Shown: positions 589-55,740 of the stretch, piece by piece
Layout: the number at the start of each line of letters is the position of its first letter
How positions within the stretch are numbered: the first letter of the stretch is position 1
Assembly (NCBI GenBank): GCA_964016885.1
Contig: OZ024740.1
Span: 375,100,001 to 375,164,000 of the forward strand
DNA from: Eledone cirrhosa
Taxonomy: Eukaryota
Direction of reading: 5' to 3'
Length of the DNA: 64,000 nucleotides
Notes under the pieces: generated by a model
Told to the model about the DNA's origin: nothing
What the model saw: the letters and a program-made list of their open reading frames with translations, nothing else
The model's database searches: none
Position numbers and translations under genes: made by a program

Positions 589-1045
589 TTTTTATTTTTA
601 TTTTTATTTTTATTTTTATTTTTATTTTTATTATTATTTTTATTTTTATTTTTAATTTTATTTTTATTTTTATTTTTATTTTTATTTTTATTTTTATTTT
701 TATTTTTATTTTTATTTTTATTTTTATTTTTATTTTTATTTTTATTTTTATTTTTATTTTTATTTTTATTTTTATTTTTATTTTTATTTTTATTTTTATT
801 TTTATTTTTATTTTTATTTTTATTTTTATTTTTATTTTTAATTTTATTTTTATTTTTATTTTTATTTTTATTTTTATTTTTATTTTTATTTTTATTTTTA
901 TTTTTATTTTTATTTTTATTTTTATTTTTATTTTTATTTTTATTTTTATTTTTATTTTTATTTTTATTTTTATTTTTATTTTTATTTTTATTTTTATTTT
1001 TATTTTTATTTTTATTTTTATTTTTATTTTTATTTTTATTTTTAT
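589..1045. repeat. (TTTTTA)n hexanucleotide microsatellite, about 75 near-perfect units
   Basis: Directly visible; it produces the spurious IKIK/FIFI ORFs at 569-1072. Confidence 0.98.
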
Positions 1046-1049
1046 ATAA

Positions 1050-4000
1050 ACATTCCGCAGGCTCACATACATTCTATGTGCGTGATTTGGTTCATCTCAG
1101 CCAATCAGCGCCAGTAGAAGAGGATGTATCCCTACGCATTCTGAGGGGGAAATAGCCCGCAAAGATTAGAGGACGCTACCACTCGCAGCCGCGACCGTGC
1201 TAATGTAAACAACCATTTTTCTTGCGCCGTGAAATCACTAGCCAATATATAACACAACAATTTAACCACGGCCTGGCAACGCTTCTCTCAGCCAGTAGCC
1301 CGTGTCTTTCTGGAATCTTAATTCGTTTGTTTAATTTCTCTTGGCATGCCAGCTCAACCTTTGTTAATAAATTATTTAAAAACAAGCTAAAGTCGTGATC
1401 GATATTCCTATCATATCTTTCTACCAAACTGGTGGTTCCTCGTGGCAACATTACAACTCTCGAAATATAACTCTCCGCTACATTGGTGACAACACATATT
1501 TTAACCCAATTGGCGCCCCTCGACGATTAAGAATGAAAACGCAGCCAATTTGAATTCGCCATTCATTTTGACGGCAATGTGGAATGGCTTAACATTTGAA
1601 ATGTTCGAATCGGGTAGCTAGACTCACTTAGCGTAAGTCCATACAATTCATAATATTCCATTTGTTGAAGCACGCATACAGACAAACACAAAAATACAAC
1701 ACAAAAAAAAATAAAAAAAAAATAAAAAAGGATTTCTGTGGATATAGAATTTTGCTTTCAACATTCTGTTAAAATTACAAATAGAGACTCAAACATTTTG
1801 TTTTCCCGCGTACAGCTTGTCTTCTTCGATCCCAGCCGTCTGATTGGCTGCGTCGTGTCACATGACGGCTTCTTCATCACAGCCGCATTTTTCAATCGGC
1901 CATCTTGCCGAATAATTTTCATTGAGAATAATTTGTTTTGTTGTTCGAATTTTCTTTCGAATATTTTTAGAAAAAAAATTAGCAGTACTTCAAAAAACTT
2001 TACGTCACGAGGAAATTTCAAAACGGCTACCACCAAGTACCAGCCATCAGCAGCAACACATGGCTAACTATTAAGCAACAACAGGGAACGGCTTGTAACT
2101 TTACCGACGCAACCACCATACCTTCTGTCTCGTTATAACAAGGACTCGTGAAATTAAGACATTAGTTTTCTCACCATTATGGCGTCAGACCTGGCGGCTA
2201 TATTGGTGAATCTGCGTTCTTCAACGCTCGACTTCTACTCTACAGAAGATTCATTGTGACTTTGCAACAGCAACTCTACTAGCTCCCTAGTAAGAGCGTT
2301 CCCAAAGAAAAAAGAAGCGAACTTTTTGTTAAAAGAAAAGAACAAATTCTTTCTTCCTTATTTTTTTCAGGCATTTATTTTGGACTTTTATTTTTTTTTA
2401 AAACTGTATTATATGAAAATTCACTTCTCTCTATCATTCTATATGTGACCGCACGCACACACTTTCTTTGTATTACATGCCTGCATATATACACACACCT
2501 ACAGATTCAACTTGCTTTTTTTTTCTTACAAAGCAACCAGCCATTTTTTCCTGGCTCCCTAGCACATTCGGCAATACATCTGGGAGGCCAACATTTTCTC
2601 GCCTACCCATCATCTTCTTGCCAGCACTGGTAAACTACCATAATAGCTTCGTTCACAGCTACTGGTACAACCAACACTTACCATTAACATTTAATGCAAG
2701 AACAGCAACTTCGCCCATGTCAGACTTTATCTGTTTTCTGGTAGACATTTGGTGGTCACGTATAAACTACAAAACAGCTAGTCATTTGACAGCGGCTCAA
2801 CACGGCCCGTCAAGCCTCATATTTTTTTTTCTTGCATGCATCTTTCTGCTCAATGATTTTTTCACTGATGTGCTCTTTCAGCATTTGTTCTTGCTGATTC
2901 AATAATCTGTGGGTCCTCGGCTTCATCGTTAACGATTTTCGGCTAAAAATCTGCTCGGAGGTGATGTAGTGACCTACATTCCGTGGGCTCACATACATTC
3001 TCTGTGCGTGATTTGGTTCATCTCAGCCAATCAGCGCCAGTAGAAGAGGATGTATCCCTACGCGTTCTGAGGGGGAAATAGCCCGCAAAGATTTGAGGAC
3101 GCTATCACTCGCTGCCGCGACCGTGCTAAGCTAAACAACCATGTTTCTTGAGCCGTGAAATCACTAGCCAATATATAACACAACAATTTAACCACGGCCT
3201 GGCAACGCTTCTCTCAGCCAGTAGTCCGTGTCTTTCTGGAATCTTAATTCGTTTGTTTAATTTCTCTTGGCATGCCAGCTCAACCTTTGTTAATAAATTA
3301 TTTAAAAACAAGCTAAAGTCGTGGTCGATATTCCTATCATATCTTTCTACCAAACTGGTGGTTCCTCGTGGCAACATTACAACTCTCGAAATATAACTCT
3401 CCGCTACATTGGTGACAACACATATTTTAACCCAATTGGCGCCTCTCGACGATTAAGAATGAAAACGCAGCCATTTTGAATTCGCCATTCATTTTAACGG
3501 CAATGTGGAATGGCTTAACATTTGGAATGTTCGAATCGGGTAGCTAGACTCACTTAGCGTAAGTCCATAAAATTCATAATATTCCATTTGTTGAAGCACT
3601 CATACATACAAACACAAAAATACAACACAAAAAAAAAAATTAAAAAAAAATAAAAAAGGATTTCTGTGGATATAGAATTTTGCTTTCAACATTCTGTTAA
3701 AATTACAAATAGAGACTCAAACATTTTGTTTTCCCGCGTACAGCTTGTCTTCTTCGATCCCAGCCGTCTGATTGTCTGCGTCGTGCCACATGATAGCTTC
3801 TTCATCACAGCCGCATTTTTCAATCGGCCATCTTGCCGAATAATTTTCATGGAGAATAATTGTTTTTGTTGTTCGAATTTCCTTTCGAATATTTTTAGAA
3901 AAAAAATTAGCAGTATTTCAAAAACTTTACGCCACGAGGAAATTTCAAAACGGCTACCACCAAGTACCAGCCATCAACAGCAACACATGGCTAACTATTA

Positions 4001-5360
4001 ACCAACAACAGGGAACGGCTTGTAACTTTACCGACGCAACCACCATACCTTCTGTCTCGTTAGCACAAGGACTCGTGAAATTAAGACATTAGTTTTCTCA
4101 CCATTATGGCGTCAGATCTGGCGGCCATATTGGTGAATCTGCGTTCTTCAACGCTCGACTTCTACTCTACAGAAGATTCATTGTGACTTTGCAACAGCAA
4201 CTCTACTAGCTCCCTAGTAAGAGCGTTCCCAAAGAAAAAAGAAGCGAACTTTTTGTTAAAAGAAAAGAACAAATTCTTTCTTTCTTCCTTTTTTTTCAGG
4301 CATTTATTTTGGACATTTATTTTTTTTAAACTGTATTATATGAAAATTCATTTCTCTCTATCATTGTATATGTGACCGCACGCACACATTTTCTTTGTAT
4401 TACATGCCTGCATATATACACACACCTACAGATTCACCTTGCTTTTTTTTTCTTATCAAAGCAACCAGCCATTTTTTTCCTGGCTCCCTAGCACATTCGG
4501 CAATACATCTGGGAGGCCAACATTTTCTCGCCTACCCATCATCTTCTTGCCAGCACTGTTAAACTACAATAATAGCTTCGTTCACAGCTACTGGTACAAC
4601 ACTTACCATTAACATTTAATGCAAGAACAGCAACTTCGCCCATGTCAGACTTTATCTGTTTTCTGGTAGACATTTGGTGGTCACGTATAAACTACAAAAC
4701 AGCTAGTCATTTGACAGCGGCTCAACACAGCCCGTCAAGCCTCATATTTTTTTTCTTGCATGCATCTTTCTGCTCAATGATTTTTTCACTGATGTGCTCT
4801 TTCAGCATTTGTTCTTGCTGATTCAATAATCTGTGGGTCCTCGGCTTCATCGTTAACGATTTTCGGCTAAAAATCTGCTCGGAGGTGATGTAGTGACCTA
4901 CATTCCGTGGGCTCACATACATTCTCTGTGCGTGATTTGGCTCATCTCAGCCAATCAGCGCCAGTAGAAGAGGATGTATCCCTACGCGTTCTGAGGGAGA
5001 AATAGCCCGCTTAGATTTGAGGACGCTATGACTCGCAGCTGGACCATGCTAAGGTAAAACACGCTTGTTCTTTTGCTCCGTAAGCACAAACAATATGTAA
5101 CGACAAAGCATTACCTACGAGCCTGGCCAAACGTTTTCAGCAAGTCGCCCGTATTTTCTCTTGTAATCTTAATTGATTTGTTTCATTTCTCTTGGCATGC
5201 CAGCCTAATTCACTTCTTAACCTTGGTTAATAAAGAATGTAAAAACAAGATAAAGTTGTTGTCGATATTCCTATCATATCTTTCTACCAAACCTGGTTCC
5301 TCGTGGCAACACATTACAACTCTCGAAATATACTTCTCTGCTAAATTGGTGACAACATCT
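1050..5360. repeat. Tandem repeat with a ~1.92 kb unit: two full copies plus a more diverged partial third
   Basis: ACATTCCG..GGCTCACATACATTC recurs at about 1050, 2976 and 4900. ORFs 1200-1451/3126-3377 and 1738-2067/3666-4001 are duplicated. Confidence 0.95.
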
Positions 5361-10822: not shown

Positions 10823-11024
10823 ATTAACACTTAGAATTTAATAATCTATCATACGATTTAATTATAATACCATTATATATTTTAAAGGATTGTAAATAAA
10901 ACGAGTAAATCAGACAAAGTTGGAATTCCTCTTATTAATATAATCTTCTATACACAATCATACACACCCGTGTATATTTACCTATCTCTCTTTATATATA
11001 TATTCCTATTGTGTATATGCCAAC

Positions 11025-12311
11025 ATGTCTAGAAAGCAACAAATGAAATCAACAGAATCAGAAAGAATTCTAAAGGAGATATCATCGAAATTATCAACAC
11101 TTATCACGATGATGGACACACAATACTCTATTTTAAAGGAAATAGAAAAACAATCTACAGACGGAAAACTTATAACTGAACATATAAACTCTGAAATTAA
11201 GAATTTAGCTGAAATTATACCAAGAGTTATCAAAGATACAAGAGAAAGCCTACCACAACCCCCTTGGATGTCAGAAATAAACGAAAGAAATTTGGAAAAC
11301 AAAACACATCGAATAAGAAAAGAAATGTGGAAGACATAGAAAAAATTCCTTAACATAAGAAAACAAAATTTCTGGAAAGCATACAAATACGAAAAATATG
11401 TCGAAACACATTCGAAATGGCTCTCTCTAACGGCCCCCATACTCCCTCGTAAATACCTAATTACAGAAATTGCAGGAGAACCAGAAGAAGAAACAAAACT
11501 CCGATGGGAACTTACATTAACAAAATTCAGGACCGACATCTCCATTTCTGAATGTAAACAATCCCGCTACAAAGCCATATATGAAGCTATTGATGACCAA
11601 ATTGAAGTTGAAATTTCAAAACTAACGACTGGTATTATAGCTGAAAAACTACGAGAACTATGGATCGGAGATATCTCAAAAGAAGAAAACAAATCAAGAA
11701 AGGTATGGCAGCAGAAACAATTATTTCTCGACGAATATGCTGCAAATTACGGTAAAGACTCTGGAACCCTGAGAAAAAGCATAAAAAGTGGACAATCTCA
11801 TCAACACAACATACGCCAGAACACGTGCCAACACAAACACTCACCTTACCTTGAATCAAAGAAGAACTACGGTAATAACTCTTCGCTTTTTCTACAAAAA
11901 CACCCTATCGCACACAACATGAACAAAAAGCACAAACACGATAGATATTCCTTTGACCTGACCATGGGAAGTAGTAAAACCAGGAGATCATTCTCAAGAT
12001 CTCAACAGAGATTGCCCACAAGAAACTGGACGAAAAAAAAACGATCTAAACCTGAAAGCAAACCTAGGTCATTTCCCCAGATTGTTAAAAATAATGCAAA
12101 CAGGAAGAAAAATAATATACAGAATACCAAATATAGGACAAAATACATAACGAAACCAAATATAATATCACGACCAAAAGTTCATCAAGCGAACACCAAC
12201 AGGATTATAAATCCTGAACGGAGAAAAATCCATTTTTTAACATCAGGACAACAAAAACCGGAAAAAGAAAAACTCCAGGAGGAAACATACCCAAAACAAC
12301 TGTACACGTAG
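11025..12311 (+). pseudogene. Upstream ORF of PLE-1 (helical N-terminus, K/R-rich tail), disrupted
   Basis: MSRKQQMKSTESERIL.. is conserved in the second copy (55674 downward); TAG at 11337 reads TGG in the other copy. Confidence 0.75.
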
Positions 12312-14536
12312 ATCCTAAAATTTATCTAAAAGAGATCTTGACAATGATGAAATGCAAATTCTGTCAAAAGGACTGAAATTTACACCGACTCCAACAGTCA
12401 ACCACCAAGAACTGAAGAAGGATACCCACGAATTCTGTCGAAAATTGCGTCTTGTAGAATTCTTCGCTGATAAAAATATCGAGAGTGATGAATCACAAGT
12501 AAAGAATAAATCAAATTTCACTCCGCCAAAAGGAAGAAATATCTATCACAACCAATACATTGACATCCTGTCTAAATTTCCTCTTAGACATAATACTAAT
12601 GTTAGGCCAAACATTAACAAATCAGAAATGTCTGTACTTAAACATATACAAAATGATAAAACAATAATAATTAAACAAGCAGATAAAGGGGGTGCAGTTG
12701 TTATAATGGATACTGAATACTACAAGGATTTGGTTGAGGAACAACTGAAAGACACAACATTCTATCATGAAATACCGTCAAATATAGACCACAACATCAC
12801 GAAGAAGATCAACAACCTGGCTTCAAAATACCACAACTCATTTACTGATAAGGAAAGAGACTACATCACCAATTTTGAGCCGAAACACAGCAACCTGTAT
12901 GGCCTACCGAAAGTTCATAAGTCAAAAGAAATACAACTGGCAGTAAGAGAACAAAACAGTGAGTACATTAAATTATTACATCCAAAAGACTTAAAACTTA
13001 GACCTATTATAGCTGGTCCAACATGCCCCACCCACCGTCTAAGCAATTTTGTTGACATTATTTTGAAACCACTATGTATTCACATACCCAGTTTCATCCG
13101 GGATGATATCGACTTCCTGTCCCATCTTCCTAAAACCACGAAAACGAATTCACTTCTACTCAGTTTTGATGTGGTAAGCCTTTACACCAACATTACACAT
13201 GATTTAGGAATAAAGGCGGTTAAATACTGGGTGGAAAAACACAGAGAAGTGATTCACATTAGATTCACAGCGCCATTTATATTAGACGTAGTTAAACTTA
13301 TTCTGGAAAACAACACTTTCTTCTTCAATGGAAAGAATTACATCCAAATTAGAGGCACAGCGATGGGAACGAAGTTTGCTCCCGTTTACGCGAACTCTGT
13401 AATGGGATACTTAGACAACAACTCTACCAAGAAATAGAGGAAAAATATAGTACTGACTTTAGAAAGTACATTGAAAAATCTTGAAAGAGATACCTTGACG
13501 ACTGTTTCATCATCTGGACAGAATCTCTAGATACTCTGGATGAGTTCAATATCCTCCTGAATAACCTACACCCATCTCTCCAATTCACAAAAGAGATGAG
13601 TAGCACCAAATTACCATTCGTAGATATAATGATAATCAAAAACGACACCACCATTACCTCGGATATATATTATAAACACACAGACAACCATCAATATCTG
13701 AATTTTAAGTCGTGCCATCCACCTCATACAAAACGCAACATCCCATACTGCCTAGCCAGAAGAATGTGTACCATTGTAGAAGATACGAATACCAGGTACA
13801 AACGCCTAACAGAAACTAAGAGAATTTTTGCTCAAACAAAAGTACCCATATCTATTTATAGAAAATGGCATACAGCGGGCTATAAAAATACCTATACAAC
13901 AACTTAGGACAACCCAAGGAAGAAGAAACCAAGAACTGGTCATACCATTTATAATGACACACAACCCATGTCACCAGATTATCTTCAACACTGCCAAAGC
14001 AAACCTACCGATCATTGCTCAAAGTAATGAATTAAAAGGCTTAATCACAGATCGATCTTTGACTCTTAGTAAAACACACCCAAAAAATGTGAAGCAATTA
14101 CTAACAAAAGCAAAGTTTGACCTTAACAACAAAGACCAATCATTCACTGTATCTAAATGCAATGATAGTCGATGCGGCACATGTCAATCCATACACGCCG
14201 GTCAATATATGAAAACAAAAACTGGAAAAATATTCCCAAATGCAAATATGAACTGCAAAAGCAGAAATCTAATTTACTGCATTAAATGCCTGAATTGTGA
14301 AGAACTATGTCGGTCAAACTGGAAATGCACTATCGGAATGTGCACGGGTACACCGTCAACAACTCAGAGACCCAAATGTCCGTCAGATACCCTTAAGTAA
14401 CTATCTAGCAACATCTGGTCAGGGAATATTTATAATATTCCCATTTTACAAGTTACACAGCCCAAGTGAAATCAAGAGAAAAATCAAAGAAAATAATTTT
14501 ATTGATAAATTCAAACCCAAGCTAAATGAACAATAA
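12240..14536 (+). pseudogene. PLE reverse transcriptase plus GIY-YIG endonuclease, frameshifted
   Basis: Motifs LSKGLKFTP, IKQADKGGAVV, YGLPKVHK, LRPII, SFDVVSLYTNI, GTAMG, RYLDD, CNDSRCGTC, NLIYCIKCLNC, YVGQTG, KPKLN. Confidence 0.95.
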
Positions 14537-16149: not shown

Positions 16150-19730
<3,581 letters not shown>

Positions 19731-19752: not shown

Positions 19753-19792
<40 letters not shown>

Positions 19793-19830
19793 ATTAAATA
19801 AATGGAAACTATATTTATAAAACCATATTT

Positions 19831-19894
19831 ATTTCATTATATATATTTCAGGGATATCATTTTAACAATATGCTATGCCTTCCTCAGACAAAAT
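19831..19894 (-). ncRNA. Type I hammerhead, family F
   Basis: Reverse complement reads ATTTTGT CTGAGGA AGG..CCT GAAA TATATA TA ATGAAAT; AUA site. Confidence 0.75.
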
Positions 19895-21279
19895 ACAATA
19901 TAAACAGTTTTATAGATAAATAGATTCGACATACCGTAACAACATCGACTTGTATTTGAAAAGGTTGGTTTGGCAGTGAAAAAATTGTACACAGATAGAA
20001 AGAAAGAGAGAAAAAAAGACAGAAAACGAAGAAAAAGAAGAAAAAGAAGAAATGCATGGAACAAAATAGAGAGATGGAAAGATAGATAAAGAGAAGAACT
20101 TCATGTAAAGAAACAGAAAGAGATATATATATAGAGAGAGAGAGGAAATAGAGATAGATACATATATATAGAAAATTAGGTAGTGGGACGTCTGTTGAGT
20201 AAACGTATCAATGATACATTTATTTATTTATTTATTTATTTAGCTCTAGTATTAATGTAAGGGAGATATATGGAGAGAAACCAGCTGTTATATATAGAGA
20301 GAGAAAAAATATAGAGAGAGAAAAATATAGATAGAGAAAAAATTTAAAATAACCAGATATAGGCGAGGCGTAAAAAACCCTATGTTTTAATGTAGAGGTA
20401 TTAGTATTTATAAAAACCAGCCACTATATTGTAAATATCAGTATTCCTGAATGAGACAAGTATCCATAATGTGTGAAAATTAATGATCTTATGTTTAGTT
20501 TTTTAAAAAAATTCATATGTTTATGTGATAGCTACAAACATCTATGTGAATCCACATGATCAACTCTGCAAACCCTAAGTTCACGGAAAACATTCTCAAT
20601 GTGGTATAAAAATTTAAGTATACATATATGTGTATATATATACACACAAATATATATAGAGTCAATATTACTATTCCTGTCTTTACTCTACAAGATTATC
20701 TATCAAGCAGAAATAGAGAACAGAATTCAATATACTAATAAAAATATATATCAGAAACAAAACTAAAAAATAACAATAATAATAATAAATAATAATAAAA
20801 TAGAAAACTAAAAAATATTACGAAAGAATATTACATATTAAAAATATTACATATTAAAAAATTTACATATTAAAAATATTAAAAATAAAAATATTAGAAA
20901 ATACTACAATAATAAAAATAAAAATAAACGACAAAGATCAACCCTTCAAAATTAATTGACAATATATTGCCAAGTTCATTATAAGCATCAGAGTCGAAAA
21001 ACAGATAAAGCCAAAAATTATCTATCAAATCACATCTAGCAAAGATCATTTCAAAAATTTAGGATGCCCAATTTGGTCTACATGTGTTCTTATATTTAAT
21101 ATAGAAGTTTATCTAGTGTAACGTTTATTCGAAATATTTGGAGCATCAACTTTTAGGGTAGCTTAATTTTTCATGAGGAATGTTTACATAAAAATAAAAT
21201 AAAAATAAAAAGAATAAAAAGAAGGAATCAAAGATTTATCGGCTAGTTTCCCATATAATTATAAATCAAACTAAATATA

Positions 21280-21948
21280 CTACATTTTAAATTTAAATTT
21301 ATATTTAAACGTTGAGTTTAATCTATGTTTGCAACAACTGAATAAATTTGTCCGTAGATTAAGGGAATTTTTAGATTTTAGTATAAAGAATATCTCCTCT
21401 GCGCAGAGGTCACATGTCTCAGAGGATGAATTAAAAGGAATCCCTCTTGAGACTATATTCCAAGCCGTCGAATATCTAACGTTATCTAGCTTAAGTTGCC
21501 AGAGTACGCCTGATAGTGCCGTTGAAGATTTTTTGCTTGGATCTGTGAAAGAATTTTTGTGGTTATTATAGCGAAGTTTAAATTCCGTCGATGTGGAACC
21601 GACGTAGTTAAAAGAATTAGAGTCAGTATTAACATTACAATTGTATACTATATTTTTAACTAAGCAGTTGTTATTTAACGGACATTTAGATCTATCTCTA
21701 CAGTTACATTTGTTAACTTGTATATTATTTATGCTATTATCACTAGGTTTTAAGTTCCTATTATTTATTCTATTAATATTTTGTGCTAAATTTTTGGTGG
21801 ATGAGTAGGTTAATTTTATTGTATGTCTATTGAAATTTGAGTGATACCTATGTGTTCTAGGGAAGCGATTATCAAGAGCTTTAAAAAATAGTTTAGCGAT
21901 GTGGGTGTTAATGTTTAGTGAGAAAGGGGGGGGGGGGGGGCAAACCAA
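21280..21948 (-). pseudogene. PLE C-terminal linker plus GIY-YIG endonuclease
   Basis: FNRHTIKLTYS, CNCRDRSKCPLNNNCLVKNIVY, YVGST, FKLRYNNHKNSF, CDLCAEE, LN. Confidence 0.88.
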
Positions 21949-22275
21949 ATTATGTTCCTAGTTCTATTTCTTTTTTGGCCTTTGGAATTATTGTAATGCT
22001 TTCTATTATAGTTGTTAAGGTTGTTGCCGTAATTAAAAAAGTTGTTACTTTGTTTAGTTTGTCTATCATTATCTATGTACACAATCTTATCAGCATATCC
22101 TGCTCTAGCTAATGCTTCATTATAGTATTGGGCTTTTTCGTCGAAAATCTTTCTATTCGACGAGATCCAAATATTTGTCGAGTGCTTTTATATCAGTTAT
22201 AAATATTTACTAGTTGTAACCCAACAATTTAAATATAACTTTCCATGTATATATATATATATATATTTATATGCA

Positions 22276-22357
<82 letters not shown>

Positions 22358-23408
22358 TGAAAGACGTAAAATAAGAAAATTATAAAAATTAACTCACTTA
22401 CTAAAATTTCACTCCAACTAATTAGTTTCTGAAAGGGAATAAACATGGTTTCTGAATGGAAAGCACGGAGAAACCTTTCGTCATCAGGAAGTTCGTTCTC
22501 AGCTAAGTGACCTAAGATGCGTGGACACAGGGAACTTATACAAAAATAATTCAGTGGATGGAAAAAAGCAAGCGTGGACATTAATTCCAAGACATTGAAA
22601 AAATCACTGCCTACTTGGTCAGTGGCAAATTCAAAAGAATCAATCACGTGACATCGATGTTAATCAGTGAGGAGTGGGGTGTTAAAAAGACAGTGGCCGA
22701 GCCAAGTTGGAGTGAAATTTTTGTAAGTATATTTTTATAATTTTCCTATTTTACGTCTTTCATATAATTGTTCTGCATCCCCTTGCATTGAACCACAAAG
22801 TTACTAAGACAAACCTATATATTTGCTAGCATAGGTATGCATCTGTATATATATGTTGGTAGATATACTAATTCTTTATAATTATCTCCAAATTATTTTG
22901 TTGAGCAAAAATTTGTCAAAACTGCTACTATAGTTCATCGTAATGGCTCGGCCACTGACTTTTTAACACCCCACTCCTCTCTGATTAACGTCGATGTCAC
23001 GTGATTGATTCTTTTGAATTTGCCACCCACCAAGTAGGCAGTGATTTTTTCAATGTCTTGGAATTTAGTCCACGCTTGCTTTTTTCCATCCACTGAATTA
23101 TTTTTGTATAAGTTCCCTGTGTCCACGCATCGCCTGGTAACTTATCTGAGAACGAACAGCCTGATGACGAAAGGTTTCTCCGTGCTTTCCATTCGGAAAC
23201 CATGTTTATTCCCTTTCAGAACTAATTAGTTGGAGTGAAATTTTAGTCAGTAAGTTAATTTTTATAATTTTCTTATTTTACATATTTCATATAATTGTTC
23301 TGCATCCCCTTGCATTGAACCACAAAGTTACTAAGACAAACCTATATATTTGCTAGCATAAGTATGCATATGTATATGTATATCTTGGTAGATATACTAA
23401 TTCTTTAT
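22358..23408. mobile_element. ORF-less HHR element, family G: inverted piece plus a 523-nt head-to-tail monomer
   Basis: 22360-22704 is the reverse complement of 22944-23290; 22705-22878 is directly repeated at 23228-23408. Confidence 0.85.
22412..22491 (-). ncRNA. Type I hammerhead with extended stem II, family G
   Basis: Reverse complement reads CTTC CTGATGA C GAAAGG..CCTTTC A GAAA CTAATTAG TT GGAG. The copy at 23157-23235 (+) has lost one A of GAAA. Confidence 0.8.
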
Positions 23409-23429
23409 ATATAAATATATATATATATA

Positions 23430-23672
23430 TTTCGTTTCTGAAATTGTTTAGCAAGATTCTTTATCTGAAAACGTGCGTTAAAACCGATATTGTTATACTT
23501 TGGGAGGGTCATTTTACAAATAAGTAAATTTAGGAATTTATAAATTTCCGTTTGGTTGGTTGGTTCCACAACCAGATGGTTGTTTATATATTTTCAAAGT
23601 TCTTTCGTCACACATTCTGTGAAAGCACTGGTGCGTGTGTTTCTTATTGGCAACATGACCCTCCCAAAGTAT
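23430..23672 (-). mobile_element. Deleted and rearranged pLTR fragment of the PLE-3 family
   Basis: Matches 47878-48130 and, in the other orientation, 27520-27572. Confidence 0.8.
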
Positions 23673-24812: not shown

Positions 24813-24862
<50 letters not shown>

Positions 24863-24927
24863 CGTAAAATAAGAAAATAAAAAATTTTTTTTTTTTTTTT
24901 AAATTAACTTACTTACTTAAATTTTCA

Positions 24928-25007
24928 CTCCAACTAATTAGTTTCTGCAATGGGATAAAGACAGTTACGTAATGAACTGTTGAGAATTGCATTGCGTCAT
25001 CAGGGAG
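24928..25007 (-). ncRNA. Type I hammerhead with extended stem II, family G' (canonical core)
   Basis: Reverse complement reads CTCC CTGATGA C GCAATG..CATTGC A GAAA CTAATTAG TT GGAG. Confidence 0.85.
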
Positions 25008-25650
25008 GTCATTCTCAGCCAAGTCTCCAGGCAATGCGCGGACACTGGGGACTCATATAAAAATAATAATAATTCGGTAAATGGAACAGCTATCGAGGAC
25101 TGGATTCCAGGTACTGAAAATTCTCACTGCCACTGGTCATATGGCCGATTCTAAAGAATCAATCACGTTACACAGAGGCTATTCAGTAGGAATGGGATGG
25201 TAAGATGACAGCCGCCTACTAACACCCCCAAAAAATTTAGAAGTGGTTTTGACAGGTTTGCTCGACAAATCAGTGATTTGGAGATAAATATAGATAATTT
25301 AATATATCTACTAACATAAGCGCACAGATGTACGCTAATGCCAGCACATACACAGGTTATGTCATAGTACCTAGGTGGTTCAATGCAGGAGGATGCAGAA
25401 CAATAATATAAAAGAAGTAAAATAAGAAAATTTAAAAAAAAGGCGTCTGTCATCTTACCATCCCATTCCTACTGACTAGCCTCTGTGTCACGTGATTGAT
25501 TCTTTAGAATCGGCCATATGACCAGTGGCAGTGAGAATTTTCAGTACCTGGAATCTAGTCCTCGATAGCTGTTCCATTTACCGAATTATTATTATTTTTA
25601 TATGAGTCCCCAGTGTCCGCGCATTGCCTGGAGACTTGGCTGAGAATGAC

Positions 25651-25730
25651 CTCCCTGATGACGCAATGAAATTCTCAACAGTTCATTACGTAACTGTCTT
25701 TATCCCATTGCAGAAACTAATTAGCTGGAG
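25651..25730 (+). ncRNA. Family G' hammerhead with mutated cleavage triplet (GCU)
   Basis: CTCC CTGATGA CGCAATG..CATTGCA GAAA CTAATTAG CT GGAG. Confidence 0.7.
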
Positions 25731-25905
25731 TGAAAATTTAAGTAAGTAAGTTAATTTAAAATAATGTTTTTTTTTTTATTTTCTTATTTTACGTCTTTTA
25801 TATTATTGTTCAGCATCCTCCTGCATTGAACCACCTAGGTACTATGACATAACCTGTGTATTTGCTGGCATTAGCGTACATCTGTGCGCTTATGTTAGTA
25901 GATAT

Positions 25906-25988
<83 letters not shown>

Positions 25989-43377: not shown

Positions 43378-45558
43378 GAAGGAAATGTGGTAAGAAACCA
43401 GATGGACCATAACTCACTAAAGTACTCAATACTTATGGTAGTAGAGTGGGTAATAGGAACAAGCAGGACCCCGACGGCTGAGCTCAAGCCGTTTCGACGG
43501 CTAATTCTTGACTAAATGAACATTTTTAGCCTCGTAAATGAATAGCCGAACTTCTCAGGGGGTAATTCCATATATGGTAACAGTAATTGTCACAAGGATT
43601 GGTCAAAAGTTTGTTGTTAAGACACATGATTCTATCATGGCATTTTGTGGGAGGTAGGGGTAGCTGAACTTGCCAGTAAAAGAAAGAGAGTGAGGGAGTG
43701 GAGGAAACCCAGTCAAGCGTTGAAAGTGAAAACTACAGCAGATTCTACGGATAGTGTATAGAAGATCGAAAAAGGTATACTAGAGAATGGGAGGGGGGAG
43801 GAAGTTGAAACAATAAGTAAATCTAAATGGAGTAAATATATAGAAAATATAAAAAATATTAAAAATATTAAAAATATTAAAAATATTAAAAATATTAAAA
43901 AAAACAATCTCTGGTTACTAGTTCCCTTCCACAATCATGAAATCTCTCACTGGTACTGCTAAGCTATAGAAAAGTTTAATAGGTTGAAAGGACTACTAAA
44001 TACGAGATTTTAGTGAAAGAATTGTATGAGGCCATCATTACAGGGGTTCTACCACCGCTACAATAGTTAGTAGTAATCGGCCAAATCTATCTTACAATGA
44101 CAGGTCAACAAGTTGAAATACTCATACAATATATATAAAAAAACAATACATTATATATAAATACTGCTACATACATACATTCTAATACAATCTACATAAA
44201 TACATGTACAAAAAGTAATACGAAAAATTAATTTAGAATACCCCAAGATAAATACTGAAATACGAGAAATTAAAGCAGAAATACCACTAAAAAATCTAGA
44301 AATCAAGGAAATGGGGCAGCAAGCAGAGAAGAAAGTAAGTACCTGGTGTCTAGCACATCTGCTATAAAAAGCGAAATCGGCCAATTTTATCATAAAATAA
44401 GGGGGTGGGGGTACTGAGGCTATAATGGACCGTAGGGCTACATCGGGGTGGGCGAGAAGGTGAAAAGAACGACGACAAAGAAGATCTGGGGTCGGAGGAC
44501 TAGGAAGAGATGGGGGAATAAGGAAATATAGAGGAAACGGTAAAAAATATATAAAAAATATATAAAAAAGTTACGTCTAACTTTGTAAGCAGGGGTTACC
44601 CATTACAAAGTCGGCAAGTGGGGTGTTTCAGCCCTTGCCCCCCCCCCCCCCCCTGATCATTATGGGGTTTGAGAGGGAGGTAAGTCCTACGCAATCTGTA
44701 TTTGCATGCAGTTACCATTTCGTCTTTCTTGTATAGGAGTTAGTCCGTCGAAAACAGCATTTGTAATGTTTCCTCCGAGCATAAGTTACACGGACGGCGT
44801 CCTCCCGTGTAAAAGTTGGCTCTGGACAGTAAGCTCCAAGTGAGATTATAGGTTATATTGTTATCTTTGAGGTCCCAGATGTGGACCGAAAGTCTAGTGG
44901 CGTCACGCCGGGCCGGGTTTGGGAAAGTATGTCTGTGTTGGTATAGCCGGGTCTTGAAGTCACAAGCGGTAATTCCTATATAAGCTTTGTTGGAGGTGTC
45001 CGTCCTCACGTTGCTCTGGTAGATCACATTACGCTCTCTGCATCTGTTGTGGAGGGGGCAAAGGGATCCATCAGGACAGTATACCTCCTGGTCGGCTCTC
45101 CACTGCTATCTAGGTTATATCTTCCATAGGGGTTGAGATTTTGGTGTTAGAGGAGACGATGTTTTGTGCAAAGTTAGGTGTGGTGCTGTAGATGAGTTTG
45201 GTATTATTTTGTTGATTATGTTGTGTTAGTGGTGTTGTAGTGGGAAGTGTTTTTCGATGAGCCTAAAGAAGATTTTCCCGATAGGTGTTGTCACCTCGGC
45301 ATTGTGGGGATAATTGTGACACGATACGCTGCGTGAGCGGCGGTGTCGCCTGCTGGTTCCGCTAATGGAAGCTGGACAATAGGATATTTCCTCCCGGAAG
45401 CCACTCCGCTTGACCAATCCTTGTGACAATCACTTTTACCATATATGGGATTACCCCCTGAGAAGTTCGGTTATTCATTTACCAGGCTAAAAATATTCAT
45501 TTAGTCCAGAATTAGCCGACGAAGCGCCTTGAGGTCAGCCGTCGGCGTCCTACTTGTT

Positions 45559-45562
<4 letters not shown>
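43375..45562 (-). mobile_element. 5'-truncated PLE (second type) with GIY-YIG at about 44700-45400 and an inverted 5' pLTR at about 45412-45562
   Basis: YIGITACDFKTRLYQH, LSVHIWDLK, CNLCSEE; 43452-43603 is the reverse complement of 45412-45562. Confidence 0.88.
43468..43563 (-). ncRNA. Type I hammerhead-like motif, family J (core CUGAGAA)
   Basis: Reverse complement reads ACCCC CTGAGAA G.TCGGCTA..TAGCCG.C GAAA CGGC..GCCG TC GGGGT. A decayed copy lies at 45453-45548 (+). Confidence 0.65.
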
Positions 45563-45600
<38 letters not shown>

Positions 45601-45669
45601 AAGAAACAAAGATGAAATTGAAATTGCAACTGGAGTCTTATTTTTAAAAATATCTAAATTTATTTGGTT

Positions 45670-45706
45670 CCTTTACCGGTTTCGCAGTTCTTCTGCTTTT
45701 CAAAAG
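45670..45706 (-). ncRNA. Family E hammerhead (U3-A8 core), in a pLTR fragment at about 45597-45855
   Basis: Reverse complement reads CTT TTGAAAA GCAG-AAGAA-CTGC GAAA CCGG TA AAGG. Confidence 0.75.
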
Positions 45707-46165
45707 TACAGTTTAAATGGAGGGTCTGTGTTTGAAAAACCATAGACCCTCCATCCAGTTGCATTTTCGATTTCATCTTTTTTTCTTTATACTTTCACTA
45801 GTGTAGGACACCTCGGTTATTTTTCATTTTGTAAAAATAACCTCACTTTCTAATATAGTAATAATAATAAAATAGGAGACCAAAATCCAAAGAGGGCTCG
45901 ATAAGGAAAATATATATCAAATATATAAGAACCGTAGAGCAAATATTTATTAAAATAACAGATTAAAGTTTAAGCAAAGAATCGCTGCTTTCACCCTTAA
46001 CGGGATCTTTCCACCAACGAGCGCATTTTCAACGACCATTCCGCTTATTACAATGAAGCTCTTGCTCGAAGTGGATTTGTCGATAAGGTAGCATATACAG
46101 AGTACGAAAATAGACCTAGAAGATATAGATCCCGTCGCATTTGTTGGTTTAACCCACCATATAAT

Positions 46166-46816
46166 ATGGAGGTGTCCACACCATTAGCTAAGATCTGTCT
46201 TTCCCTTATTACGAAGCATTTTCCCCCTACACATAAATATAGTAACATTTTTAATAGAGATACTATTAAAATTTCTTACTCTACGACTCCTAACCTTGCA
46301 CATAACATGACAGCTTCAAATTTAGCTAAACTACCTAGCCGTAGGAACACGTGCAACCCTGTAGTTAGTACTAACTGTAATTGTAGGAATCGGGCTGATT
46401 GCCCTCTATCCGGGAAATGCCTCTCTAGTAACATTGTCTACAAATGTAAGGTTGTAACACCCACGTCCCATAGGGCCTACATAGGGTTAACCGCCAATAG
46501 TTTCAAGCAGCGTCTTTACATGCATACCCATTCTTTTCGCTGCCCTCTAAGAAGGAATATGACGTCACTTTCAGCTTATATCTGGAGTCTAAAAGATAAC
46601 CACACCCAATATAAGTTACACTGGGAGATCCTAGCTAGGGCTAGATCGTATAACGGAAATAAAAGACCATGTGACCTCTGCGCCGCTGAGGCCCTGGAAA
46701 TACTCTACGCCACATACCACATCTTAAACAAAAAATCTGAGGCAATTTCGGCTTGTAAACATAAATTGCACAAAACTTTCCTGTATTACAGCCCCACGTT
46801 ATACCCTAACGGATAG
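46166..46816 (+). pseudogene. PLE linker plus GIY-YIG endonuclease (open frame, element 5'-truncated)
   Basis: WFNPPY upstream, IFNRDTIKISYS, CNCRNRADCPLSGKCLSSNIVY, YIGLT, FKQR..H, CDLC..E, LNKKSE..CKH. Confidence 0.9.
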
Positions 46817-48403: not shown

Positions 48404-50872
48404 TTAATTTAATTTTGGTTGTAATTCTTTTATGCTTACTGCCTCTGTAATTTGCCTAAACATTGCATCTTTTCTGTGTGTGGATTCTATTTTTATTTCT
48501 ATGTTCTCTAATCTACCCCTGTGCTCTATCTTAGCATGTTGGTAGAGCACAGATGATTCATTATTATCTTGAAGGTCTCGCCAGTGTTCATTTATTCGTT
48601 CCCCTATACTACGAGCTGTCTCACCTATGTACACTATATTTTTGGTTCTACTTTGTCCTTCAGTACAACTTATGCTATACACTACATTTCTAGTTTTACA
48701 GTTAATATGGAGGCTTATTTTACAGGTTATACATTTCTTATCTATACATGAGGGTCTTTGGAACGGGTATGTCTTGCTAATAAGTGTTTTTACGGAGGTA
48801 CCTGGTCTTTCTACTATCTTAATATTGAGTTTATGTTTATTTAGGGCCCTTCTAAATTAGTAGGCTAGTTCGCCTCTAGGGGTTGTATTGATGAACATTA
48901 CACTCTGGTATTTATTGCTATCATACCATGAGTTTATTCTATTGGCCTTGTTCCTAGTTCTTTCTATTCTATTCCAAAATTTGCTCCTATACAAGGGGCA
49001 GGTCCCATTTATGTCATTATTTACCATTTTTACCCATTTGATTCTGGCTCCTCTATACACTCTGATTCTATCTCTCTGATTGTAGCCAGAGAACTGCATA
49101 TGGTGGATGATGTGTTGTATGTGTCTCTCTAGTTCTTCGGGGTTGCACATGCGGGACACATTTCTCATCACCCGTACCAAATCCGCAATCATTATGTTGA
49201 TTTTGGTATGGCCCGAAATGGCCGAGTTTCGGTGGATCAGATGTTTGGAAGTCATGGGTTTGGCATAATGGGAATGGAGGATTTGTTTTTGGTTGTTAAT
49301 GGTATCTAACCAGAGCTCTGTGTCTAGTACAGGTAATCGATGGTTGGGGTGTCTACTTGGGTAGTCTATAGTAACTCTAATGCTCTAGTGGATGGAGTTT
49401 GCTATTTGCTGGATGCTTTCCATTGTGTTTTTCTCTAGTTCCTGACTTTTCTTTAGTGGGGGTGTCTTAACTACGATGTTTATATCATCTGCGTAGCGGG
49501 AGTACATTATCAGGGTTAAGCTGTCTTCTAATTGTTCTTTAACTTTTTGTTTAAGTCTACTGTCCCACCATACCATGAATAAGTTAGCTATGTCGCCTGC
49601 AATGCTAACACCAATGGCTGCTCCTTCCTCTTGGGCATATGTTTTACCATTAAATTTGAACATATGTTCCTTAAGGGTTAATTTTATGCTGGCCCCTACC
49701 GCATGTGCAATCATTTTCTTCAGTTCATCGTGGTGTTCGGGTGTCCGTATGGCTCTGGTCCACCCGTTCCATCTATCTGTGTGGGTTTTCTTGGCCATTG
49801 AGGTAATGGTAGGTGGTCTGCCTCTTGCTGGTCTTGTAGGGCACAGGTTGCTAAGGTCATAAGTGTCTAGGTAACTATTACTATGGGTAAGCTTAAGTAG
49901 AAGTCCCAGCTCACTGGTATCAATCCCACGGAACTCAACCTTGCTCTCGCTGATCATTTCTACGCATTTCTCCACAGCAAAATCCACGTCAATAGATGGA
50001 TACAGGGACACAACATCCATACTACCTATTATGCAGTTTGTTAGGTCCCCAGATCGGTTACTCGCGCCGAATCTGCTGAGGAGGTCCTCCGTGCTGTCAC
50101 ATACATATGGGAACATCTCAATGATGGGGCGTATGATCAGGGAGAGGAAGTAGGACAGTCTGTAGTTACTAGCAATGTTAGCTCCACAGACTGACCGTGT
50201 TGGTGGTCCCGCGACAGGGTCACAGCCCGTTTTATGGTCTTTTCGAAGCCCATACAACGCCGGCACGTCATTGTTCCAGGCCTGGAAGTTGTTGGCAGTC
50301 CTTTTGTTGGGCTGCATTATATTCGTCCACATCACCATATGGGCATTGAGGGCTTTTTCTCTATCCTCATGCTCCTGTGGTGTTAACTCTCTTGTGTTAG
50401 TGATGTGGGGTTGCATTGACTGGATGTAGTTTGGCAGGCTGTCAACCGACATTCTGCCAGACTTGTCTGTTGGAAAGCATGCTATCTCTCCATTACGCGA
50501 GCGCTGCATGAGCTTACGCAAGCCATTTGCAGATTTTTCTCCCAGTTGCTGGGCCTCTATTCTATTATGCTTCTTGCTATACTGTTCTATAATATTTCTA
50601 AGTTCGTATTTAGCTATACTAAATTGTGCTTCTGTTTGTTCATCGACCTGCGACGGCAACTGCGTGAGTTTGTTAAATGGTAAAGTCGTGGCTTGGACTC
50701 GTCGCAGGTCGAATGATTTATCGGAGGGATTATAAAACGGAGAGTTGCAGGCTGCTGCTTTATGTGTACTAGTGCTATTGTTATTGTTAGTTGTGTTGTT
50801 TCTATGTCTATTTCCACCAACAGCCTCATGGTTGTTTCTATGTCTCTCATAATTACTCCTGTCTCTTTCCAC
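48404..50872 (-). pseudogene. PLE-3 RT plus GIY-YIG, with a few stops and frameshifts
   Basis: PTDKSGR, LYGLRKDHK, GSMDVVSLYPSI, GAAIG, RYADD, VYSISC..YIGETARS..ER..EH, QPKLN. Confidence 0.93.
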
Positions 50873-52139
50873 TGGCTCAATGTTGTTATCTACCCTATTT
50901 TGTGTGTCTCTGTGTTCGTCTTGGTTATTCTCTTGTCCTTAGTCTCCCATCTCCTTTTCTTTTTAATCTTATTACTTTCCCTTATTTCTCTGATTTCTGT
51001 GCTACTGTCATTACTTGTTTTCTGTGTCTGTGTGTTTGTTAAGATTGTGGTGGTGGTGAGAGGCATTGAATGCGTGTGTGTTGTTGTTGTTGATGTCTGC
51101 TGTTGTTGACGTGTGTTGTTGTTGTCTCCGTGTGTGTTATCGTTGTTGTGTGTGTTGTTATTGTTGTTTGTGTCTGCGTGTCTGTTGTTGTTGTTTCTGG
51201 GTATGTTGCTATTGTTGTTGTTGTTGATGTGTGTGTTGTTGTTATTGTTGTTTGTGTCTGTGTGTCTGTTGTTGTTGGGATGGGTGTTGTATATGTGTTG
51301 TATATGTGTTGTATATGTGTGTGCGTAAAGAATCATCTGTGCTCTACCAACATGCTAAGATAGAGCACGGGCGTAGATTAGAGAACATAGAAATAAAAAT
51401 AGAATCCACACACAGAAAAGATGCAATGTTTAGGCAAATTACAGAGGCAGTAAGCATAAAAGAATTACAACCAAAATTAAATAGAAAATATGAGTGGAAC
51501 AGCAACATCACAACTTACAATTAAGGACAAAATTAAAACACACACACACATAGAACAAGCAAACAACCAACAATAAATAAATAAATAAACAAATAGATAA
51601 ATGAACTCAAACACACACAGACACCCGGATGTGGCGCATGCGCAAACTGAGCACACAACACACAGAAACAAAATGGCGTAGGATAGAAGAAAGGAAAGGC
51701 CCAGAAACAAAGAAAGGAATCCCCAGTCACTGAAGAGGTCACAGAGTGTATGACAAAAGGACTATGACTATATATAAACAACTATCTGGTTGTGGAACCA
51801 ACCAACCAACCAGAAATGTATAAGTTTGTAGATTTGTAAATTTATAAATTTATAAATTAATTAATATATAATAAATTGAAGTGAAAGCAACTGGTGCGTG
51901 TGTTTCTTATTGGCAACATGACCCTCCCAAAGTATAACAATATATATATATATATATATATGTAAGTATGCATGTATACGTACATACATATATGTATACA
52001 GACGTACAGTAGCATGCACATATATATATATATATATACATATATATATACATATGCATACATTTAAGTAAGTGCCATACTAAGAGTGAGAAATGAAATT
52101 TTGTTTTCATTTTGTTTCAATTTATATATATATATATAT

Positions 52140-52411: not shown

Positions 52412-55400
52412 AGCGACATATAATTCTTCACAATTCGGGCATTTAATCCAGTAAATTAGATTTCTGCTTTTGCAGTTCGTATTTGCATTTGGGAATATTT
52501 TTTAGTTTTTGTGTTCATATATTGACCAGTATGTATGAACTGACCTGTGCCACATCGACTATCATTGCATTTAGATACAGTGAATGATTGGTCTTTGTGG
52601 CTAAGGTCAAACTTTGCAGTAGTGTGTAATTGCTTTTACTAAGAATCAAAGCTCGGTCTGTGATGAAACCTTTTAATTCCTTAATTTGAGCAATGATCGG
52701 TAGCAATGATTGGCAGTTTTGAAGATATTCTGGTGACATGGGTTGTGTGTCATTATAAATGTTATGACCAGTTCTTTGTTTCATCTTCTTTGGGTTGTTC
52801 TAAATTGTTGTATAGGTATGTTTATAGCCCGCTGTATGCGATTTTCTATAAGTAGAGATGGGTATTTTTGTTTGAACAAAAATTATCTCAGTTCTGTTAG
52901 GCGTTTGTTCCTGGTATTCGTATCTTCTACAATGGTACAAATTCTTCTGGCTAGGCAGTTTGGGATGTTGTGTTTTGTATGAGGTGGATGGCACGACTTA
53001 AAATTCAGATATTTATGGGTGTCTGTGTGTTTATAGTATATATCCATGGTAATGGTGGTGTCGTTTTTGTTTACTACTAATCTCTTTTAAATTGCAGAGA
53101 TGGGTGTAGGTTATTCAGGAGGATATTGAACTCATCCAGAGTAGCTAGAGATTCTGTCCAGATGATGAAACAGTCATCAAGGTATCTCTTCCAAGACTTT
53201 TCAATGTACTTTATAAATTCAGTGCTATATGTTTCCTCTATTTATTGGTAGAGTTGTTCTAAGTATCCCATTAGAGTTCACGTAAACGGGAGCAAACTTC
53301 GTTCCCATCGCTGTGCTTCTAATTTGGGTGTAATTCTTTCCATTGAAGAAGAATGTGCTGTTTTCCAGAATAAGTCTGACTGCGTCTAATATAAATGGCA
53401 CTGTGTATCTGGTGGGATCACTTCTCTATGTTTTTCCAGCCAGTATTTAACCGCCTTTATTCCTAAATCATGTGTAATGTTGGTTTACAGGCTTACCACA
53501 TCAAAACTAAGTAGAAGTGAATTCGTTACCGTAGTTTTGGGAAGATGGAAGAGGAAGTCGATATAATCCAGGATGAAACTGGGTATGTGAATACATAGTG
53601 GTTTCCAAATAATGTCATCAAAATTTCTTAGGGTGTGGGTAGGGCATCTTGGACCAGCTTTAAAAGATCTAACTTTTAAGTCTTTTGGGTGTAGTAGTTT
53701 AATGTAGTCACTTTTTTTCTTTTACTGCCAATTGCATTTCTCTTGACTGATGAATTTTCGGTAAGCGATAAAGGTTGCTGGGCTTTGGCTCAACATTGGT
53801 GATGTAGTCTCTTTCATAATAAGTAAGTGAGTTGTAGTATTTTGAAGCCAGGTTGTTGATCTTCTTCATGATGTTGTGGTTTATATTTGACGGTATTTCA
53901 TGGTACAATATTGTGACTTTCAGTTGTTCCTCAACCAAATCTTTGTAGTATTCAGCATCCATTATAACAATTGCACCCCCTTTATCTGCTTGTTTAATTA
54001 TTATTGTTTTATCATTTTGTATATGTTTAAGTGCAGACATTTCCGATTTGTTAATGTTTGGCCTTACATTAGTATTACGTCTAAGACAGGATATCAATGT
54101 ATTGGGCGAGATAGATATTTCTTCCTTTTGGCGGAGTGACATTTGATTTAGTCTTTACTACTGATTCATCACTCTCATTACTTTTATCAGCGAAGAATTC
54201 TACAAAACGTAATTTTCGACAGAATTCTTGGGTATCCTCCTTCAGTTCTTGGTGGTTGACTGTTGGAGTCGGTGTAAATTTCAGTCCTTTTGACAGAATT
54301 TGCATTTCATCATTGTCAAGATCTCTTTTGGATAAATTAATTATTCTAGGATCTACGTGTTCAATTGTTTTGGATATGTTTCCTCCTGGAGTTTTTCTTG
54401 TTCCGGTTTTTGCTGTCCTGACGTTAAAAAAGAGATCTTTCTCTGTTCAGGATTTATATACCTGTTGGTGTTTGCTTAATGAATTTTTGGTCGTGATATT
54501 ATACTTAGTTTCGATATGTTTTTGTCCTATTTTTTGTACTATGTATATTATTTTTTCCATTTCTTGTTAGCATTGTGTTTAACAATCTGGGAAAATGACT
54601 TAAGTTTGCTTTCAGATTTAGACCGTTTATTGCCCAAATTCTTGTAGGTAATCTCTGTTGAGATCTTGAAAGTGATCTGGTATTCTACGTTTTATTCCCC
54701 GTTACTTGTGGGTAGTCTCTGTTGAGATCTTGAGAATGATCCTCTGGTTTTTCTACTTATCATGGTCTGATCAAAGAAATATCTCTCGTTTTTTTTGCTT
54801 TTTGTTCATGTTGTGTGCGTTAGGGTGTTTTTGTAGAAAAAGCGAAGAGTTCTTGCCGTAGTTATTCTTTGATTCAAGGTGAGATGAGTGTGTGTGTTGT
54901 CATGTGTTCTGGCGTATGTTGTGTTGGCAAGATTGTCCACTGTTAATGCTTTTTCTCAGAGTTCCTGAGTCTTTACCGTAATTTGCAGCATATTCGTCGA
55001 GAAATAATGTTTTCTTATGCCATAACGTTTTGATTTGCTTTCTTCTTTTGAGATATCTCTCATCCATAGTTCTCATAGTTTTTAACCTATATTACCAGTC
55101 GTTAGCTTTGAAATTTGGACTTCAATTTAGTCATCAATAGCTTCGTATTTGGCTTTGTAGCAAAATTGTTTACATTGAGATGTCCGTCCTGAATGTTGTC
55201 AATGTAAGTTCCCATTGGAGTTTTATTTCTTCTTCTGGCTCACCTGCAATTTCTTTAATTAGGTATTTACGAGGGTGTATGGGTGCCGTTAGAGAAAGCC
55301 ATTTCGAATGTGTTTCGACATATTTTTCGCATTTGTATGCTTTCCAGAAGTTTTGTTTTCTTATGGTAAGAAATTTTTTCCATGTCTTCCACATTTCTTT

Positions 55401-55692
55401 TCTTATTCGATGTGCTTCATTTTCCCAATTTCTTTCGTTTAGTTCTGACATCCAAGGGTGTTGTGGGAGGCTTTCTCTTGTATCTTTCAGCTAAATTCTT
55501 AATTTCAGAGTGTATATGTTCAGCTATAAGTTTTCTGTCTGTAGATTGTTGTTCTATTTCTTTTAAAATAGAGGATCGTGTGTCAATCATCGTCATAAGT
55601 GTTGATAATTTCGATGATATCTCATTTAGAATTCTTTCTGATTCTGTTGATTTCATTTGTTGCTTTCCAGACATGTTGGCATATACACAATA

Positions 55693-55740
<48 letters not shown>

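Follow-up and report, generated by a model that had tools for sequence, protein, structure and literature searches.

Does a tandem run that begins beside a predicted ribozyme cut record the copying of a ribozyme-processed RNA? The question is raised by a locus in a stretch of 64,000 nt from Eledone cirrhosa (contig OZ024740.1), here called the window, in which two arms of a repeat family, family G, lie head to head between two (AT)n tracts. The first-pass annotation had read this copy as the cDNA of a processed, possibly circular RNA that started at the cut, was extended for more than one round and then underwent a 5' inversion. In this family the 3' ends of arms are fixed at about +59 (site A, the short end) or +174 (site B, the long end) from the predicted cut, where they are joined to (AT)n, and the tail between the two sites measures ~115 nt. 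The features of the locus and its surroundings are these, in window coordinates:

19753-22247: young coding Hydra-type Penelope-like element (PLE), a two-arm insertion, with its own minimal hammerhead near 19887 on the minus strand
22248-22357, no strand: left (AT)n target microsatellite, common to the neighbouring coding PLE insertion
22358-22704, minus strand: site A (short-end) arm, 94% identical to the plus arm
22411-22492, minus strand: minimal type I hammerhead, intact, with the predicted cut after GUU at 22416/22415
22705-23408, plus strand: site B (long-end) arm
22709-23231, plus strand: cut-to-cut monomer, 523 nt between predicted cuts
23156-23236, plus strand: degenerate hammerhead with helix I mismatches and a GAAA one base short; predicted cut at 23231/2
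23409-23431, no strand: right (AT)n target microsatellite
24858-25906, no strand: second insertion, of a subfamily ~70-74% identical, with a minus arm to site A and a plus arm to site B

The coordinates given earlier for this copy are correct. The plus arm opens AGTT/GGAG at 22705, four nucleotides ahead of a predicted cut (22708/9), and from there it is 523 nt to the next one, with no ORF in between; the longest ATG ORFs of the copy are 58 aa (sense) and 68 aa (antisense). The arm consists of these 4 nt, one full monomer and ~174 nt, and then enters (AT)n, while the minus arm starts mid-unit (family position ~241), runs through its ribozyme and meets its (AT)n flank ~59 nt beyond the cut. The minus-arm hammerhead has a 5-bp helix I, CUGAUGA, a C.A between the core and a 6-bp helix II, and a 3-bp helix III within a 12-nt palindrome. 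The plus-arm ribozyme has two helix I changes and has lost one base from GAAA, a degeneracy that the first-pass annotation missed, so the only intact ribozyme is in the minus arm. Since the plus-arm ribozyme is broken, the locus cannot release the cut-to-cut monomer. In addition, the two arms meet bluntly at 22704/5. The four bases that precede the cut agree with the plus unit, whereas in the family the minus arm continues with a different sequence; since microhomology with the other arm does not explain these bases, the plus arm did not arise by run-off from a cleaved 5' end. Two consecutive complete ribozymes, which Li et al. require of an active copy, are absent from the window copy and present in other copies of the family such as L274 and L361, and neither arm of the second insertion starts at the cut. 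The window locus is a dead, decayed and ordinary copy of family G, and its start near the predicted cut is best taken as chance. Contigs from one sample (three runs, kind unrecorded) include the G unit and are too short to span the 22704/5 junction.

Family G itself is an abundant non-autonomous PLE-type element (a non-LTR retrozyme), of a kind already known. The 19-nt cut-site motif has 9,591 exact copies in the 3.0-Gb genome, 7,969 when the upstream core is included, and the exact junction motifs number 1,648 for site A and 877 for site B; reversed controls gave 0 in each case. For the subfamilies reached by the junction motifs, recapture (12/51 and 7/52) gives a rough estimate of ~7,000 A arms and ~6,500 B arms. 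The modal monomer is 530 nt (range 508-554, with lengths reaching 594 in a younger subfamily). Clustering splits natural monomers into a dozen groups or more, which share ~80-94% identity with the reference copy, and the longest sense ATG ORF is 16-77 aa across 81 of these monomers. The suggestion that the unit is larger than most animal retrozymes holds against the 170-400 nt circular RNAs reported in PMC7229834, but 523 nt is well inside the retrozyme consensus range of 51-972 bp given in 10.64898/2026.07.22.740005. The same G insertion was seen at several places (L200-L203; L122, L123 and L126; L088 and L089), and such recurrent insertions are therefore carried inside larger duplicated segments.

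The 3' ends were studied in 180 loci fetched by their junctions, 90 of the 100 matches listed per site out of the 1,648 and 877; all lay on one contig (C1), and 168 remained after 12 duplicates were dropped. These comprised 99 loci with a partner arm ending at A or B, 45 single arms, 11 with a partner ending elsewhere, 6 with a short inverted fragment, 5 with a direct rearrangement and 2 that ran off the locus. Ends were paired A+B in 97 of the 99 two-arm insertions, the rule-breakers being one A+A and one B+B; one long array was also A+A. An independent set of 52 ribozyme-anchored loci held 32 tail-out pairs, and all 25 with both ends at A or B were A+B, the 7 others having a non-standard end. 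Pooled, 122 of 124 inverted insertions show A+B pairing and hence a tail at one end, and of 100 partner arms 95 have a microsatellite on their outer side. The part of the earlier reading that saw a PLE-type inverted insertion stands, but a later inversion of the same cDNA does not, since each arm has its own fixed 3' end.

The (AT)n target and end architecture of G are the same as those of coding PLEs of the genome (9/9 short+long pairs), two coding families with Hydra-type endonucleases giving 4/4 and 5/5; one short+long-pairing coding family matches the Hydra motifs and (TA)n habit described in PMC8557442. According to PMC11167929, a PLE protein in vitro nicks and extends both target strands and uses two internal RNA start sites that define a tail between them; the same account has ribozyme mutants inserting normally and the start site being the same on both strands. 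A PLE tail is often present at one end only (PMC8557442, PMC3846280). The pairing pattern is known in outline, and family G adds its near-strictness and a 115-nt tail. The origin of tandem and inverted PLE insertions with a one-sided tail is named as an open question in PMC8557442, and the in vitro work answers how these insertions are built only in part. With its thousands of copies, family G offers countable rules, namely short+long ends, cross-family partner arms and template-matched repeat runs at the priming site, together with a 530-nt substrate on which PLE insertion rules can be tested.

Does the cut set the start of the run? In 267 arms the 5' starts are scattered round the whole unit. 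Starts from -5 to +5 of the cut occur in 8 of these arms, with 7.8 expected from exposure, and in 3 of 85 arms of an independent sample, so the claim that the tandem run begins at the ribozyme cut fails. At the cut itself breakpoints are mostly random. Starts are enriched at +1 to +30 (58 against 24.1 expected) and at +1 to +13 (33 against 9.9), the latter being 12 of 219 against 7.9 (p 0.1) once symmetric junctions are set aside, so that the +1 to +13 excess may reflect palindromes or stalling at structure. A minority signal stays: in 9 of the 99 two-arm insertions both arms end at +5 to +24 with the cut not crossed. The 6-nt palindrome that directly follows the cut holds seven junctions and the 12-nt palindrome that precedes it holds none, even though 53 insertions have both arms crossing the cut. 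This minority is what run-off from cleaved ends in roughly one event in ten would give, and it also fits stalling at helix I or fold-back. No 5'-end pile-up marking a transcription start or a full round was seen in the arms, a weak post hoc excess at 165-190 (10 against 4.3, asymmetric arms) being all that the search returned.

These counts bear directly on the original view, in which the ribozyme cut sets the run starts and one cDNA then makes the 5' inversion. The window copy, starting 4 nt from a cut, and the enrichment at +1 to +30 speak for it, but the flat count at -5 to +5 already largely refutes it, the plus arm of the window copy extends past the cut on its upstream side, and each arm has a fixed 3' end of its own; we consider it highly improbable. 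We give equally little credence to the G unit being a mere pseudo-LTR (pLTR) of a coding PLE, with truncated copies. PLE pLTRs with such ribozymes and tails are described in PMC4209133 and PMC8557442, and at one locus (L145/L232) a GIY-YIG ORF is fused to G, both lying in the same orientation. However, 109 of the 267 arms wrap upstream into the previous unit, a contiguous ORF was found in 0 of the 52 ribozyme-anchored loci, the 39 other best-scoring copies of the L145 ORF do not continue into G, and the 19 of them that were fetched have a terminus of their own. The L145 join, the one such case in the samples examined, is unique and was rejected as a natural pLTR. No RT + GIY-YIG ORF between pLTRs was found in the sampled loci of family G, nor any G-like terminus in the coding PLE families sampled, which are a minority of the PLE families of the genome. 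The earlier proposal of a non-autonomous hammerhead retroelement with PLE-type inverted insertions is upheld.

The neighbouring GIY-YIG ORF (21280-21957) was considered as a coding partner and rejected: its family is distinct, has a ribozyme of its own and shows no similarity to G. Pfam searches with 7 window ORFs gave weak RVT_1 and GIY-YIG matches alone, in 2 of the 7. The coding PLE beside G has its short end near 19789 and its long end near 22247, and G sits in its (AT)n flank. Its RT + GIY-YIG frames are 747-785 aa, with RWR, DKT, CxCx5C, CxxC and CxH motifs that agree with the Hydra description in section 11 of PMC8557442, and it is very high-copy, with 71,589 first-look candidates and 98-99% protein identity among the top copies. 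Directly to the right of G, at 23432-23670, is a short two-arm insertion of another ribozyme-bearing PLE family, apparently also with one long and one short end.

Copies of family G are tandem non-coding units with one type I hammerhead per unit, and core and helices are intact in 135 of 204 ribozyme copies with full upstream context. Across 22 aligned ribozymes the named structure is 96.5% paired, against 33-48% in slid controls, and both partners have changed in 2 of 6 helix II pairs and in 2 of 3 inner-hairpin pairs; a shuffle test on these ribozymes is inflated by the relatedness of the sequences. The core is conserved across subfamilies, with compensatory changes in helix II, and this covariation supports the predicted, putatively self-cleaving hammerhead. 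The GUU triplet before the predicted cut is conserved in the family, and such a triplet would be expected to cleave slowly. The helix III palindrome is perfect over 12 nt and is computed to pair between molecules at -10.8 kcal/mol; dimeric PLE ribozymes with intermolecular palindrome pairing are described in PMC4209133, as are minimal PLE hammerheads that cleave poorly in vitro. Rfam returned 0 matches over the window at the gathering threshold and, at E up to 10 over 22300-23450, chance miRNA-like matches alone and no hammerhead. The monomers have a GC content of 0.35-0.36, and in 4/4 monomers circular folding is far better than that of shuffles (z -4.4 to -6.5), giving a predicted hairpin chain in which sites A and B are each a few bases 3' of a predicted hairpin.

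We propose, with good confidence, that G, whose tandem hammerhead units have no ORF, is likely mobilised in trans by a Penelope-like RT/GIY-YIG protein. This protein would nick both strands of an (AT)n microsatellite and prime two cDNAs at separate internal positions, one at site A and one at site B. Both cDNAs would stop at variable points and be joined head to head via short microhomology, and single-arm copies would have lost one of the two. The template would mostly be an RNA with no end close by, in the form of a ligated circle or of an uncleaved multimer; about a tenth of two-arm events would copy ribozyme-cleaved linear ends, and the RT could slip and repeat at the priming site. In 83 of 97 insertions the B arm continues beyond site A, which excludes a simple form of twin priming in which both cDNAs use one RNA and no displacement occurs. 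The inverted arm might instead arise at palindromes, by self-priming or fold-back and not by a second priming from the target, an origin that has been proposed for rotifer Penelope elements. Symmetric junctions are in excess here (24/99 against 12.3 permuted), and junction palindromes have been read as self-priming in PMC3846280. However, 75 of the 99 junctions are asymmetric, arm lengths are uncorrelated, neither arm is consistently the longer, and in some insertions the partner arm derives from another family. We regard fold-back as an unlikely explanation.

Copying for more than one round, as the first reading held, is evident: 77 of the 267 arms exceed one monomer and 10 exceed two. Units diverge as much within arms as between them (4.7% and 4.4% in 33 loci; 1.2% and 1.4% in the young subfamily), both arms nearly always come from one variant, and their differences are distributed like private mutations. 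No position-specific difference recurs significantly between upstream and terminal units; the 8 loci against 2 at position 38 fall short of significance, and the anchor motif dictates position 41. Equal divergence and single-variant arms fit a monomeric circle as template, and homogeneous multimers fit the same facts. A monomeric circle has been proposed as a PLE template (PMC4209133) and circular RNA has been shown for other retrozymes (PMC7229834). A ligated circle is plausible for G and we lean slightly towards it, the alternative being an uncleaved multimer. In its fullest form that alternative has two-site priming from linear uncleaved multimers of tandem source loci, with no circle at all and with arrays re-grown by later duplication. 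In its favour are arrays of up to ~6.3 units, some with nearly identical neighbours (0.2%) and subset-shared alleles, and the accounts in PMC11167929 and PMC4209133 of cleavage as dispensable for insertion and of minimal PLE hammerheads as poor cleavers in vitro. Against it are the retention of the ribozyme core with its compensatory helix II changes, the missing pile-up of 5' ends at a transcription start and the lack of significant recurrent differences between upstream and terminal units. We treat this multimer-only reading as a real possibility, albeit one that we would not bet on.

The two longest arrays, of 5.5 and 6.3 units, have rare alleles in subsets of their units, and a single monomeric circle predicts neither such subset-shared alleles nor a three-unit period. 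Array length was dropped as an argument for a circle, the arrays showing signs of later duplication. In the 5.5-unit arm (L254/L256, G000:C11:2869005-2871940), units three apart tend to be the most alike (1.4-2.4%), a hint of a three-unit template or of block duplication. Rare alleles common to all units are concentrated in two loci, L065 and L168. In L065 a private variant is present in all three tandem ribozymes and in the inverted arm, and its units are 98.4% alike yet ~12% from the nearest other sampled locus.

Loci without an A or B partner were informative in another way, as the left flank was not (AT)n in 36 of 67. Eleven of these flanks, classed by hand, are inverted arms of another PLE or ribozyme family that end at that family's own short or long end, and the partner arms span several RT types. 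The pairing is short+long in 10 of the 11 (L070, L086, L093, L095, L145, L155, L156, L162, L164 and L174; the exception is L109; Fisher p 0.015), in a classing that was post hoc and not blind, with two assignments resting on one comparison locus and 5 further flanks giving no class. Deletion into older neighbours is a fair alternative origin for these hybrids. One partner, in L164 (1438-3062), is a second tandem hammerhead family with ~660-nt units and its own short and long ends; similar units were seen in L171 and L111, and no PLE protein match was seen at the three loci.

The priming sites themselves bear repeats. In subfamilies with site B TCTCTAT, 21 of 24 terminal B sites have 3-35 extra CT units ahead of (AT)n; the 31 internal sites have none, and neither do the 22 terminal sites of the TCTTTAT type. 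The simplest reading, which these counts suggest, is reiterative copying at priming; choice of compound microsatellite targets or later slippage is the alternative. One might tentatively picture an asymmetric protein pair, in which one RT always uses the short site and the other the long site, each being free to work on its own RNA, which may even belong to another family, with telomerase-like repeat addition at priming and with G as a circular-RNA parasite. We offer this as a speculation that is somewhat more apt to be wrong than right; if it is true, G insertions record both steps and lengthen the microsatellites that they target. A literature search, mostly outside subscription papers, found no description of the short+long rule, of cross-family hybrids or of repeat runs at the priming site.

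The proposed element shares features with three known systems, as far as the cited texts describe them. Like animal non-LTR retrozymes (PMC7229834; 10.64898/2026.07.22.740005), it has tandem units that lack an ORF and carry a single type I hammerhead, with a low GC content (35%) and strong self-pairing, and both co-occur with PLEs and are proposed to be PLE-mobilised. In contrast to them, the G ribozyme is of the minimal PLE type and not the canonical type with loop-loop contacts, and the G arrays are short, scattered over (AT)n tracts and built with inverted arms whose 3' ends are fixed at two positions; a circular RNA of G is putative, and G matches no coding pLTR among the sampled families. 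With EN+ PLEs (the Hydra clade, PMC8557442; Poseidon PAc, PMC11167929) it shares partial tandems, an inverted 5'-truncated arm, a one-sided tail between two internal start sites, a hammerhead upstream of both and (TA)n targeting. G differs from these in having no ORF and a tail of ~115 nt against 30-40, and the short+long pairing in 122/124 differs from PAc, for which PMC11167929 reports that the strands did not differ in vitro. Non-autonomous Chlamys elements such as MRC1 (PMC8557442) are likewise non-coding PLE dependants with head-to-tail multicopy insertions. However, those described there generally have 3' ends like those of their autonomous families, whereas G has no such partner among the families sampled, and most Chlamys elements in that account have no canonical hammerhead.

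Elsewhere in the window, further PLE-like RT/GIY-YIG ORF remnants of several types occur at 10944-14400, 16671-18309, 44740-46816, 48404-50938 and 52700-57100, and many of them adjoin minimal hammerhead motifs. A tandem repeat at 897-5199 has a period of ~1,925 nt, more than two copies at 96-98% identity, and short ORF remnants. Finally, a TCACGTGATTGATT block, which we take to be E-box-like, is present at 22997-23010 and 25488-25501; it is conserved between the two G subfamilies of the window and may be part of an internal promoter.
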